Assembly (NCBI GenBank): GCA_016191105.1
Contig: JACPPH010000002.1
Location: 3,049 to 67,048 of the forward strand
From: Candidatus Saccharimonadota bacterium
GTDB taxonomy: Bacteria; Patescibacteriota; Saccharimonadia; CAILAD01; BJGX01
DNA: 64,000 nucleotides
Reading direction: 5' to 3'
In this document: positions 50,001 to 56,000 of the stretch, piece after piece
Layout: every line of letters begins with the position of its first letter
Position numbering within the stretch: position 1 is the first letter of the stretch
Made by a program: the position numbers

Positions 50001-53000
50001 CGAATCCAGATTAAAGCCCACACAGCTGAGACTAGTTAAGACGCACCAATCACTACCAGAAAGAACTTGGCCGGTTTTTGTATATCTGCTATTTGTGGTA
50101 ATGGTTCTGGCGGCCTTGTTGTCTACTGCCAATTCGGCCAGTTCAACAGTTCAGGCCAGCATGACACAGCTACAAAATAAGCTGCCAAACAGCAGCCAGC
50201 GGATTGTTCCCAGCTCGCGCAACATTCGCTACAACATTCCTTGACATAACTATTAAATATCTGTAGAATGTAGCTGTATAAACATAAAAAAGACCAAAAG
50301 CCCCCGGGCTTTTTTAAGTTAAACCAAGCTATGAATCGTATTACAAACTACATTCAGGCTTCGATCGAGGAGCTCAAAAAGGTTGTCTGGCCAACCCGCA
50401 AACAAGCGCTGTGGTTAGCAGCAATTGTGGTTGTTGCAGCCCTGGTAGTTGGTGTTTATCTGAGCGGTCTAGATGTAGCCTTCAAAGCAATCTTACAAAA
50501 ACTCCTTATAGGAAAAAGCGCATGAAAAAATCAGACGATTTAAAAAACTGGTATGTAATCCATACCTACTCAGGCTATGAAGACCAAGTGGCCGAACAAC
50601 TGCGTCAGCGAATCGAAACCATGGAGATGAAAGACAAGATCTTCGATGTCGTGGTGCCAAAAGAAAATCAGATAGAAATCAAGAATGGCAAACGCCGCAT
50701 TGTAGAGCGCAAGATTTTTCCGGGCTACATATTGGTGCATATGACCGTTACCGAGGACAGCTGGTTTGTGGTTCGCAATACGCCAAATGTGACTGGTTTT
50801 GTCGGTTCGGGTACCACACCATCACCCTTGAGCGAAGCCGAGGTCGCCTCAATCCAAAAACGAATGGGCATCGAAGATCCAAAGTATAAGATTGACTTTA
50901 GCCTGGGTGAGTTGGTTAGTATTACCGATGGTCCGTTTAAGGGCTTCGACGCTACAGTAAACGAGATCGACGAGCAAAAGGGCAAGATCAAAGTGCTGGT
51001 AAACATGTTTGGTCGCGAAACCCCAGTAGAACTAGACAGCTTACAGGTTAAGAAGGTCTAGAAAGGAAATATTATGGCAGAAACTAAAAAAATCCACGCA
51101 AAAGTAAAAATGGTTATTATGGGAGGCACAGCTACTCCAGCCCCACCAGTTGGCTCATCTTTGGGTCAACATGGCGTTAATATGATGGACTTTATTAATC
51201 CATTCAATGAGGCCACTCAAGACCGCAAGGGCAAACCAACGCCTGTTCTGGTGACTATCTACGAAGACAAGAGCATGACTTTTGTGATTAAGGGCACGCC
51301 GACGGCAGAGCTAATTCGCCAGGCAGTTGGTATAAAAAAAGGCTCGGGTGTGCCCAACAAAGACAAGGTAGCCACCCTAAGCCAAGCTAAGCTCGAAGAG
51401 ATAGCTAAAGAAAAGATAGATGATCTAAACGCCAACGATGTTGAGGCTGCCAAGAAAGTAATTGCTGGTACGGCTCGCAGCATGGGCGTAGAGGTAGAAA
51501 CCAAGTAGTTTGTAAAAATTGATAGGTGGGAGACACTTTTAGTCGCAAGCACCACGAAAGGAGTAACTCATGGCAGAAGCCAAAAAAGAATCAAAGAAAA
51601 CCGCGAAGGCAAAAGAAGAAAAGGTAGAAGAGAAGGCTAAGGAGGCCAAGGCTACTGCCGAAGAAGTTAAGCCAGAAACTAAAAAAGCTACTACCAAGGC
51701 TGGTAAGCGTAGTGCCAAAGCACAAACCGAAGAAGCCGAAAAAGAGGCGAAAGAAGCTCGTAAAGAAGAGGCCAAAGAAAAGGCTGAAGAGTCTAAGCCC
51801 AAAGTTGTTCAAAAGCCAAGGGTAAAAAAGTACACCAAAGCTCAAAAGGACGCCCGCAAGCTGATTGAGCCAGATAAGCTCTATGGGCTCAAAGAAGCCC
51901 TAGAGGTTCTGCCCAAGGTTTCGAAGGTTAAGTTCGACCCAACTGCCGAACTTCACGTGGCACTCAATATTGATCCGCGTCAAGCCGACCAGATGGTGCG
52001 CAGCTCGGTTTCACTACCAGCTGGCACCGGTAAAGCCGTAAAGGTAGCTGTAATTGCCAGTGACAAAGAAGCCGCCGAAGCCAAAAAGGCCGGTGCCGAT
52101 AGCACCGATGCCGCTCAAATTTTAGATGAGATCGGTAAAAACAAGTTTAACTTCGATGTTCTAATTGCTACACCCGACCAAATGGCCGGGCTGGGTAAAC
52201 ATGCCAAAGTGTTGGGTCCCAAGGGCCTTATGCCATCGCCCAAGAGCGGTACGGTAACTGCCAAGCCAGCCGAGGCGGTAGCCGAAATCAAGAAGGGCCG
52301 AGCCGAGATTAAGAATGACCCGAGTGGCATTGTGCACATTGCTTTTGGCAAACTTAGCTTTAAGCCAACTGACATGTTGGCTAACGCCAAAGCCGCTGTT
52401 GATGGCTTAAACAAAGCCAAACCAAGCGGTGTTAAGGGCACATTCGTTCGATCAATGTACATTAGCTCTAGTATGAGCCCGAGCATTAAGCTCGATCCAT
52501 CTGAGGCTCTCAAAGAAGCCCGCGAATAAAATAAGATTATATCTAAAACAAGAATGCCCCCGTCAAGACGAGGGCATTCTTGTTTGACAGGGGCGGGTTG
52601 CGACTCAGCCGCCGTGGACAGGACAGAAGTCGCCGACTTGCAGGATGGGACAACGGCAGAGATCGCGCTCGACCACTTGGGGGATGCCATTGGGCCGAAC
52701 TACATCAGTCCGATCAAGCGCGGCTACCCGCGCTACTCCACAGCCATTGCAGCCAGGCAAGAACCCGTCGTGGAATTCGCAGTGGGCAGCGGCGATGTTG
52801 GCCTGAAGTTGCTGGCTTGTCTCTGCGGGACCGACGATGTCGTTGGCCCAAGCCTCGACTCGTTGGAACGCACCTTCCTTGTCGGTCAGAACGGCATCGG
52901 GGTCGTCGTATGGGTCGATGAAGCCTCTGACTTCGTTGAGGAATGGAGCTTGCCTGAAGTCGCTCATCTCCTGGCGGACCGGAACGCGTCCTTCACGAGC

Positions 53001-56000
53001 GAAGCGAGCAACATCCATTCCAGAACGGGGAATGCAGCTGAGCTTGCCGGGACCTAGCAGGCCACCGGCGTTGCATTCGTCGAACCTGGGGCAGTTCTGG
53101 TGCCCACGTTCTGTTGCTTGCTCGCGGGTACGGACGGTCGGATCGCGCAGCCAGTGTGAGTCTTGGCACACGCTGGCATTCTTGATAAGTTGAAGATCAC
53201 GCATGGCGTCCTCCTGGGTGGGTGCTGATAGGTCGACAAGAATTTACCATAATTATCACTGTTTTAAAAGTTCAAGAGGAATTAGTATTTGTTATGCTTG
53301 GGTTTTGTCACACTGGTGTGCAAGAATAACCTTGATCTCAACCAAAACGACGACAGAAACGAGAAGATCATGGACATCAAGAGATGGGCCGCTTCGGTCT
53401 ACAACAACAACGGCACACCTGGACTAAAGGTTGTGATTGAGGGCTTGTGCCCTTTCTGCGAGCTCGGTATGCAGGCCGTGCATGCAGGCAGCCTCGGTCC
53501 CGACAATGTGAAGCGGATGGGCCTGTTCGCCAACTCGGCAGTTGCTGACTTGTCGCGAGCGCGCAAGTGTGGGAACTGCGGCATTCTGTTCGGTCTTCCC
53601 GACAACGAGGAGGAATGGCTGAAAAGCGACTTCCTGGAGGATCTGACAACCGAGGGCGCAGAAGGGGCGGTTGCCAAGTTCGAACCGACGATTCGGGAGG
53701 TGCCCGGTCATGACTCTGCCCAAGGCACGGACCACATCAACCGACACTGGGATGTCGATGAGAAGCTTGAGTTGGAGATCAGGGTCGCTGGCCGTGACTG
53801 GCCACCCAGGTAGGCGTTGGGCCGGGTCCTTCGGGACTCGGCCTACCGCCGGAAATTTAGCAATTATTTACGTTTGTCACACCGCTTAGTTATACTTAAG
53901 TTATGATATCTGCAATTATCGCCATGGCTCACAACCGGGTAATCGGCAAAGACAACGACTTTGCTTGGCACCTACGAGGCGACATGATTAACTTTAGCAA
54001 GCTTACTACCGGCAATACCGTGGTAATGGGCCGTAATACCTATGAGCACTTGCTTAAGCGGATCGGTAAGATTTTGCCCAACCGCACTAATATAGTAATT
54101 ACCCGCAACAAAGACTTTAAAGGACCGGGCACGGTAGTGGTTAACTCGCTTGAGGAAGCTTTAAAAAAAGCTCCCAGTAAAGATGTGTTTGTAATTGGCG
54201 GAGCCCAGATTTTTGCGCTGAGCCTGCCGATTCTAGACCGCATTTATCTAACCGAGGTTGATGCCGAAGTCGAGGGCGACGCTTTTCTGCCAGAGATCGA
54301 TCCGAGCAGGTTTAAAGAGGTTTCGCGTGAGGCTCACAAGAAAGATGAGCGTAATGATTACGACTACTCTTTTGTGGTGCTAGACAGGGTAAAATAATGT
54401 ACCAAAAAGCCCTACCACGAGCGCTGCAAGCCTATGGCATACAGTACAGCAATCTTTTGCCGGCCCAAAAAGGTTATCGCAATGAGTCTTACCCCGTGTT
54501 ACTTAAAGACAAAGCCAAAACCATTAACTTGATTTTTTACAAGCGCGACTCAGACATACTAGAGCGCATAAAAAACGCCAACCGGGTTTCGGAATTTGTG
54601 GCCGACAGCGGCATGCCAGCGCGCCAGCGAGCCGACGAGCGGATCTTGACTCTACACTGGGCCAACGGGGTTGGCTATGTGGCAGTTTACAATTACTTGC
54701 CCGGTCAGACAATCCCGTGGGAGGCCTATACCCAAAAGCATCTCAAGCTGCTGGGCAAAACTATGAGTGACATGCATTCCGTGCTAAGCAAGTTAGATCA
54801 AGACAAGCTACCCAACGTGGCCGAAGAGTGCATGAGCTTGCTAGAGAGAATGAATGCATATTTTGAGTCGAGCGATGTTGCTCGGGCTATGCAAAGCAAA
54901 CTTCAGCTATCCATCGACTTGAGTGTACTTACAAAGCTCAAAAAAGTAATCGATGCTGCCAGCATGCTACCAGCTCAGCAGCCCTTGCACATGGATTTTG
55001 TGCGCAGCAACATTTTATTTAATACCGAAGGTGGCGAGCTAAAAGTTACCGGCATAATAGACTTCGAGAAAGCTGCTTTTGGACACCCAGTTTTTGATGT
55101 TGCCCGCACTTTAGCCTTTTTGCTGGTTGACTGTAAATATAAAGATGCCATTAAGGCCAGAAAGTACTTTCTGTATTCTGGCTATGCTAAACGCGGGGCA
55201 GCCAAGCTAGCTCAGGTGCATGTAAAATACGATGGCCAGTCGCATAACCTGCGTGAGGAGTTGGTTAAATTCTTCTTGATCCACGACTTTTACAAATTCT
55301 TGCGACACAACCCGTATGAGTTCTTGGCGCAAAACGAACACTTTGTACGCACCCAAGAAATTTTGCTACAATTGAATGTGATAAACTACTGTAGTCAACG
55401 TAGTGGAGGAGGGGAGATGACCGACTGGAAAAAGCGCCTTGTATCACAAAGCGACCTAATAGACTTACACGATAAATTAAAAGAAAAAGATAAGAAAATC
55501 GTCTTCACAGCTGGCTCGTGGGATCTAATTCATGCTGGCCAGTGTAGGTATTTGGAGCGGGCGAAAGCCGACGGCGATGTTTTGGTGGCAGGCGTGAGTA
55601 GCAACGAGGCCATACGCAAAGTTAAGGGTGCTAACAAGCCAATTCTAGATGAGAAGATAAGAGCCGAAATGTTGACTTTCTTGCGCTCTGTCGATTTTGT
55701 AACGATTTTGCCCGAACCAAGTTGTGCACCAAGCTTAGCCATGCTTAAACCCGACGTTTACATAACGGTTAAAGAAGACTGGACCAAGAACTACAAAGAA
55801 TCCAAAGAATACAAGATAGTTACCCGCTACGGTGGCAAGGTCAAGGTGGTGCCGCGCCAGTCAACGGCGCTATCGACCACCTCGATTGTACAGCGCGCCA
55901 TTGGCGGGCACTTGGGCGATGTGTTCAAAGACTTTATGACCTTGCGCAAAGACCCACTAAAAGAAAAGAAATGACTCCCGCCGAACGCAAAAAACAAGAA

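Follow-up and report, generated by a model that had tools for sequence, protein, structure and literature searches.

In a 64,000-nucleotide stretch of contig JACPPH010000002.1 from a Candidatus Saccharimonadota bacterium (assembly GCA_016191105.1; hereafter the window), a guanine-plus-cytosine (G+C)-rich islet lies between the genes rplA and folA at positions 52590-53860. It holds two open reading frames (ORFs) with Cys-rich products: ORF A on the minus strand, of 199 amino acids (aa), and ORF B on the plus strand, of 147 aa. Both were present as the initial annotation had described them, the former with its AGGAGG ribosome-binding site (RBS) and a C-terminal cluster of HCEFHDG, GCNGCG, CRCP and FCPVHGG motifs, the latter with its CPFC and CGNC pairs, and with an AT-richer spacer between the two (53205-53369, G+C 0.41). 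The products are 100% identical to the hypothetical proteins HYX70_00485 (ORF A) and HYX70_00490 (ORF B) of a Candidatus Saccharibacteria metagenome-assembled genome, where they lie on a contig of 214 kb, and neither belongs to a recognised family, as had been claimed: ORF A gave no match in Pfam, PHROGs, NCBIfam, PADLOC or PDB sequences, ORF B gave none in Pfam, PHROGs and NCBIfam, PADLOC matched neither of them nor three relatives, and searches of these libraries with relatives were likewise empty. The features of the locus are listed in Table 1.

Table 1. Features of the rplA-folA intergenic region (window coordinates)
Feature	Position	Strand	Basis or remark
Bidirectional intrinsic terminator hairpin of rplA (+) and ORF A (-)	52546..52585	.	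19-nt arms, 95% complementary
ORF A, 199 aa, cysteine-rich, rare uncharacterised family (NCBI HYX70_00485)	52605..53204	-	six full-length homologs
ORF A C-terminal Cys/His module, aa ~139-199, HCxxH-x6-CxxC...CRCP-x8-CPVHGG	52608..52790	-	
ORF A N-domain, aa 1-130, conserved C13, C38, C44, C57	52815..53204	-	
Shine-Dalgarno sequence AGGAGG of ORF A	53210..53215	-	sequence; 5-nt spacer to ATG
Sigma-70-like promoter candidate of ORF A, GTGACA-16-AATACT	53284..53311	-	consensus scan, 9/12; consensus match alone
Direct repeat TTTGTCACAC, left copy	53304..53313	+	repeat search, 100% identical, spacing 569 bp
569-bp single-gene insertion missing from the related genome L001, right repeat copy included	53314..53882	+	comparison with L001
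ORF B, 147 aa from ATG, two CxxC pairs (NCBI HYX70_00490: upstream TTG start, 171 aa)	53370..53813	+	
G+C-rich hairpin with UUCG loop, directly 3' of the ORF B stop codon	53813..53850	+	RNA fold; no U-tract
folA promoter candidate TTTACG-18-TATACT	53867..53896	+	consensus scan; TTTACG...TATACT at the homologous place in L001
Direct repeat TTTGTCACAC, right copy, within the folA promoter region	53873..53882	+	repeat search

At a G+C content of 0.578, against 0.464 for the window as a whole, the 1271-bp interval ranks first among 1255 sliding windows of its length and stands about 3 standard deviations (sd) over the mean. The G+C-rich DNA does begin directly after the rplA terminator, with values of 0.60-0.62 straight past the rplA stop codon and its hairpin (0.62 beyond the latter), a fall to 0.41 in the spacer and 0.59 across ORF B. 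The G+C content of third codon positions (GC3) deviates as well, at 0.64 for ORF A in the window, 0.75 for ORF A in the related genome L001 and 0.72 for ORF B, versus a host mean of 0.488 (sd 0.043, maximum 0.563). The codon-usage comparison suggested at the outset set both ORFs apart from the host genes, with log-odds for host codons below 0 (-0.23 for ORF A) as opposed to +0.3 to +0.4. Un-host-like codon usage was also found in the ORFs of two other G+C-rich islets of the window, at 15.1-16.4 kb and ~36 kb (GC3 0.63-0.73, log-odds near 0), so the compositional signature attributed to all three islets is indeed shared; the proteins of these two are unrelated to ORF A or ORF B.

ORF A is monocistronic, with an RBS and a promoter-like site of its own and a terminator in common with rplA. 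Since the hairpin that separates the two genes folds strongly on both strands (-25.3 kcal/mol, z -4.3, on the plus strand; -33.5 kcal/mol, z -6.5, on the minus strand) and a U-rich run follows it on each, we take it to be a shared bidirectional terminator, and an equivalent hairpin occupies the same place in L001. The candidate -35 element of the ORF A promoter falls within the left copy of the 10-bp direct repeat, and the right copy overlaps the spacer of the folA promoter-like site. The hairpin behind ORF B reaches -32.6 kcal/mol (z -4.7), a stability equalled by 0 of 200 shuffles. An Rfam scan of the islet region returned no RNA family.

L001, from a related Saccharibacterium, carries ORF A (protein P0002) at the same site and in the same orientation, in the order nusG-rplK-rplA, ORF A on the opposite strand, and folA-APH-...-thyA. 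The two ORF A proteins share 66% of their residues, with 0.277 nonsynonymous (dN) and 1.58 synonymous (dS) substitutions per site, a ratio of ~0.18. This divergence is close to that of the adjacent APH-like gene (63% identity), and dS is saturated in every gene of the flanking block. The shared site, the neighbour-like divergence and the low dN/dS together show that ORF A is a real gene that predates the split from L001 and has been under purifying selection. A search of 5.8 billion clusters brought to light six full-length homologs (198-201 aa, 44-65% identity), in whose alignment ten Cys and three His are invariant (C13, C38, C44, C57, H141, C142, H145, C152, C155, C183, C185, C194 and H197). 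No upstream operator motif was common to the ORF A homologs.

The spacer between ORF A and folA measures 137 bp in L001 and is without ORF B. Removal of the 569 bp between the repeat positions of the window leaves a spacer of 129 bp that is collinear with that of L001 (80 identical positions), and restores the TTTACG...TATACT promoter-like site of folA. The cargo of this insert is ORF B together with its own G+C-rich hairpin. Presence/absence polymorphism with a recognisable empty site was thus seen for the ORF B segment only, ORF A being found in both genomes, and all that borders the insert is the 10-bp direct repeat. No ORF B-like protein was found at the other loci that bear ORF A. The initial annotation had treated the two genes as a divergent pair, a unit that the comparison with L001 dissolves: because ORF B is a later, separate insertion, the two are best viewed as unrelated genes that are neighbours by chance.

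Both ORFs look coding, as had been proposed, given homologs of ORF A at 39-66% identity with dN/dS ~0.18 and a three-base periodicity in ORF B at p=2.8e-6. For ORF B it could nevertheless be argued that the 569-bp insert is foreign DNA that encodes nothing, a gene fragment in decay or an artefact of the assembly. We searched the 5.8-billion-cluster database, viral contigs, GenBank phages, plasmids and PDB and found no relative, there is no clear Shine-Dalgarno sequence, and an antisense ORF of 107 aa shows the same periodicity. Against this, G+C at the three codon positions follows a coding-type pattern (0.62/0.43/0.72), purine frequency at the first position (0.65) is the same as in host genes, and 99.2% of shuffles give a shorter ORF, just 0.8% reaching this length (P=0.0076). 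The product would be acidic (isoelectric point 4.95) with a globular-like composition, a dedicated hairpin stands right behind the stop codon, and an independent Logan assembly has the same ORF, in a contig of 62 kb. We therefore consider a non-functional ORF B unlikely; it is probably a coding orphan. Its two knuckles, CPFC at residues 25-28 and CGNC at residues 65-68, are a zinc-ribbon-like pair that might make up a single four-Cys site, but no zinc-ribbon model is matched.

The reading that we favour, and think fairly probable, is that mobile-element-type cargo was acquired twice, in separate events, at this one intergenic site, and that the product of ORF A, of mobile-element origin and stabilised by metal, has a binding or regulatory role. 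In the older step ORF A was in place between the rplA terminator and the folA promoter before the divergence from L001, with purifying selection since; in the younger step the 569-bp ORF B segment was inserted into the divergent promoter region of ORF A and folA, with the 10-bp repeat at its junctions. Our confidence in the two-step history is high, and in the proposed functional class of ORF A (cytoplasmic, metal-stabilised, binding or regulatory, not an enzyme) low to moderate. The elevated G+C and GC3, and a codon usage unlike that of the host, speak for a donor pool of higher G+C content. ORF A may then be an old acquisition from an Actinomycetota or actinophage-like donor that has partly ameliorated, and with dS above 1.5 an Actinomycetota-like GC3 near 0.9 could plausibly have fallen to 0.6-0.75. 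A recent fusion of the N-domain and tail of ORF A from different donors was rejected, as its halves do not differ in composition.

The closest known systems are the small, horizontally acquired ORFan islets ('morons' or cargo genes) found at intergenic hot spots beside terminators or tRNA genes. Like them, the locus deviates in G+C and codon usage, each insert brings a single self-contained gene that has a promoter or terminator of its own, relatives differ in the presence of ORF B, the junction bears a short direct repeat, and one homolog stands directly 3' of a tRNA-Met gene. It differs from them in the lack of an integrase, transposase or att site, and in that ORF A was stably inherited, under selection, from a time before L001 split off, which is the behaviour of a domesticated gene and not of a recent passenger.

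An exhaustive hidden Markov model search of 1.84 billion representatives returned just 53 relatives of ORF A. The constant part of the family is an N-domain of ~130 aa that starts with MRxxxL..S.C, a pattern found in ORF A, and in which C13, C38 and C57 never vary, conservation exceeds 90% at C44, E79 and G94, and E79 is the only charged residue conserved across the family. This domain ends in four ways: in the tail of ORF A, HCxxH-x6-CxxC...VPRxxCRCPxLxVGDFCPVHGG (type i); in ...NGGxxCDVxxGPCSCGAWH (type ii); in a longer tail with a CxxC zinc ribbon, giving proteins of ~230 aa (type iii); or without any tail. The gene is solitary at each locus, with no conserved partner.

Two of these tails also occur by themselves. 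The ORF A tail makes up proteins of 63-115 aa (P0022, P0025, P0027-29, P0031 and P0039), and eight such genes were recovered in contigs of about 68% G+C (67-70%; L010-L017), two of which are IMG/VR viral contigs of 114 and 177 kb. These genes share a conserved gene order beside a phrog_2693 protein, and the homologs of this neighbour all come from Actinomycetota phages (Mycobacterium 234, Gordonia 5, Microbacterium 1, Mycolicibacterium 1). The GAWH tail was found in 24 IMG/VR viral contigs (L023-L046) of 36-68% G+C, often as proteins of ~70 aa. NGGxxCDxxxGPCSCGAWH marks a widespread family of small phage proteins with the consensus ...HPExHxHxF..L..CC...AH....G.NGG..CD...GPCSCGAWH, for which no Pfam or PHROG match was obtained. 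On a phage-like contig of 66% G+C (L047, 7186-8570), a full-length type ii gene starts 3 bp past a gene for a PA0069/SplB-like radical-SAM protein, in an operon with NAD-dependent ligase, PARP-like protein, dNMP kinase, N6/N4 methylase and HU genes, and from their spacing the radical-SAM and N-domain-GAWH genes look translationally coupled. A tblastn search of cultured phages and plasmids returned no match for any of ORF A, ORF B and the type ii protein.

In these respects the ORF A tail (CxxH..CxxC, CxC..CxxH) and the GAWH tail resemble stand-alone phage proteins of the zinc-ribbon or treble-clef type, since both occur as phage proteins of 50-115 aa with 4-8 Cys/His ligands, and the two CxxC knuckles of ORF B recall the same group. 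They differ in that no curated zinc-ribbon model matched above threshold, their metal binding being putative, and in that the CRCP...FCPVHGG and GPCSCGAWH patterns are not described in the libraries searched; a literature search for these tail motifs likewise found nothing relevant in the papers searched.

Type i genes hold to 54-64% G+C throughout while the GC3 of their flanks runs from 0.36 to 0.84, and in three Saccharimonadia genomes they occupy two sites, that of the window and L001 and another in L009. In L002 and L003 the type i gene lies 94 bp downstream of a tRNA-Met gene, and in L002 no att-like repeat of the tRNA-Met 3' end was found. On our preferred account the type i subfamily would have moved among genomes out of a G+C-richer, actinophage-linked pool. 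In L051-53 a type iii gene sits between a homologous divIC (34% identity, E=4e-20) and the same tRNA-Met. The distant genomes L002 (344-1597) and L051 (7463-8812) have the divIC-tRNA-Met backbone in common, with their family members on opposite sides of the tRNA gene; L002 also has a FUR gene downstream.

Several observations weigh against our preferred account. The type iii and tail-less members lie in ordinary low-G+C chromosomal neighbourhoods and have a GC3 that is host-like or lower, and because the divIC-tRNA-Met backbone recurs in two subfamilies, part of the family is a long-standing cellular resident. The inheritance of ORF A has been vertical and stable since L001 split off. No integrase, transposase, att site or tRNA gene lies within or beside 52.5-53.9 kb, and neither phages nor Actinomycetota genomes yielded a full-length type i member, so that the donor and the direction of transfer are hypothetical. 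The metal binding and the binding or regulatory role of ORF A are read from conservation alone, and ORF B, having no homolog, is putative in its functionality.

Some of these points would suit an ORF A that is a native, vertically inherited Saccharimonadia gene, with its G+C due to amino-acid content (Cys, Gly, Ala, Arg, Pro, Asp) or to selection on the mRNA. The shared site in L001 with its neighbour-like divergence and purifying selection, the host-like GC3 of distant subfamilies and the divIC-tRNA-Met synteny common to type i (L002) and type iii (L051) all speak for such a history. However, the excess is seen at synonymous sites, where both copies (0.64 and 0.75) exceed the host mean of 0.488 and even its maximum of 0.563; host-codon log-odds are negative in place of the usual +0.3 to +0.4; the loci differ among the three Saccharimonadia genomes; and the tail is common to actinophage-like contigs. 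We judge nativeness to have a small chance of being right.

As regards the protein itself, the preferred reading sees ORF A as two units, the ~130-aa N-domain with its four Cys and a Cys/His module of ~60 aa. The module has two four-ligand clusters, C142/H145/C152/C155 and C183/C185/C194/H197, which with the N-domain Cys make three groups of conserved ligands. Going by conservation, the tail would most likely bind Zn, and the N-domain either Zn or an Fe-S cluster, and the swappable tail could serve as a target-binding adaptor. Given that E79 is the only charged residue conserved family-wide, ORF A is unlikely to be an enzyme, and it is probably cytoplasmic because it has neither a signal peptide nor a hydrophobic segment. 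The AlphaFold2 (AF2) model is of high quality (pLDDT 91.9), and a fold search with it found no fold neighbour. The initial annotation had raised a zinc-finger or HNH nuclease fold, for which the His/Cys-rich C-terminus is the sole recommendation. Pfam scans and fold searches gave no HNH or other nuclease signal, and the combination that marks HNH or beta-beta-alpha-Me nucleases, a profile match to an HNH family together with a beta-beta-alpha metal finger bearing catalytic His and Asn/His, was not found, leaving this the least credible of the alternatives.

A parallel is offered by the WhiB-like (Wbl) Fe-S proteins of Actinomycetota and their phages, in which a C-X(14-22)-C-X2-C-X5-C motif is followed by a G[V/I]WGG turn. 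Like them, ORF A is a small and presumably cytoplasmic protein whose N-terminal region has four conserved Cys, a CP-x4-C stretch among them. The N-domain might accordingly be thought a Wbl [4Fe-4S] redox-sensing transcription factor domain derived from Actinomycetota or their phages, the more so as local C..DP and CP-x4-C likenesses, the occurrence of the tail in actinophage-like contigs and the adjacency of divIC at two loci all fit. Yet 0 of 55 family members match Pfam Whib (PF02467) even at E<=10, hhalign assigns a probability of 0.4-0.5% against WhiB1 and WhiD (approximate sequences) with only the CP-x4-C stretch aligned, and the spacing C13-x24-C38-x5-C44-x12-C57 departs from the Wbl motif and lacks its turn. 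The domain is also larger (130 aa) and bears an added two-cluster Cys/His tail. With no significant sequence or profile similarity and no fold match, a Wbl identity was rejected, and we hold it to be very improbable.

It is also conceivable that ORF A is a conflict-system protein (anti-phage defence, anti-defence or toxin) whose Cys/His tails are sensor or target-recognition modules. A constant domain with variable tails that circulate in phages is what such a system might present, members occur in accessory neighbourhoods with toxin-antitoxin (TA) genes, Fic, integrase and transposases, and one lies inside a phage-like operon. The lack of a PADLOC match, the invariably solitary gene without a conserved partner and the single charged residue conserved across the family make this a doubtful proposition, one to which we give little weight. 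In L020 (2707-7307) a tail-less member of 121 aa lies beside genes for an ArsR-type regulator, glutaredoxin, pyridine-nucleotide disulfide oxidoreductase and ArsP permease, with Fic, TA genes and an integrase near; a redox or metal context is possible in this one instance.

Turning to the surroundings of the islet, the initial annotation had it interrupt the arrangement of rplKA and rplJL. The genes rplJ (62383-62910) and rplL (ending at 63379) lie ~9.8 kb downstream of rplA, behind a block of ~8.3 kb (53903-62195) that comprises folA, an APH-cytidylyltransferase fusion, HIT, dCMP deaminase, thyA, a GT4 glycosyltransferase (minus strand), glyA, an HD phosphohydrolase and HAD. Most of this folA-HAD block is also carried by L001. 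It is therefore the islet and the block of folate/dTMP-cycle and nucleotide genes together that part the two ribosomal-protein operons, and not the islet alone. Within the block, the APH-like kinase and cytidylyltransferase-like parts form one ORF of 525 aa in the window (54397-55974) and two genes of 331 and 189 aa in L001 (4677-6263), a difference that stems either from the fusion or splitting of genes or from a frameshift error in the sequence of one assembly. Ribosomal protein L1 has, in both genomes, an N-terminal low-complexity extension of ~90 residues rich in Lys, Glu and Ala (rplA at 51570-52529, 319 aa, in the window; 7579-8556, 325 aa, in L001).

Elsewhere in the window, the islet right behind rpsI (15100-16450) encodes three minus-strand ORFans of 169, 105 and 82 aa (GC3 0.69-0.73), and a small G+C-richer patch at 36029-36304 encodes an ORFan of 91 aa (GC3 0.63). 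None of the four matched Pfam or is related to ORF A or ORF B. At 19793-28000, four tRNA genes (Thr, Tyr, Thr, Trp) are followed by an A+T-rich region of ~7 kb (G+C 0.36-0.41) with a minus-strand DUF3800-IX RNA at 25212-25281 (Rfam RF02968, 66.9 bits); this region may be another acquired one.

Taken together, the islet is real, correctly located and ordinary in kind, a case of small ORFans acquired as cargo where an intergenic hot spot lies, that does not as yet point to a new mechanism. Although we rate the idea as rather improbable, ORF A may represent a structurally new family with three metal sites, built from a four-Cys domain and phage-exchanged Cys/His modules, that records gene flow from the virome of Actinomycetota hosts into their epibiont. 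If so, it could be a regulator of a new type that depends on metal or redox state, analogous to WhiB in function and unrelated to it in descent. Cultured Saccharibacteria live on Actinomycetota, which makes the actinophage link of the tail suggestive. The value of the locus is modest: the idea of the islet as the separator of rplKA from rplJL is corrected, and a rare, unnamed family is defined, with a high-confidence predicted structure that has no known fold relative and with Cys/His tails common to actinophage-like genomes. The empty-site comparison, the junction repeat and the self-contained terminator provide a clean, dated case in which a reduced episymbiont genome gained genes stepwise at one intergenic site.

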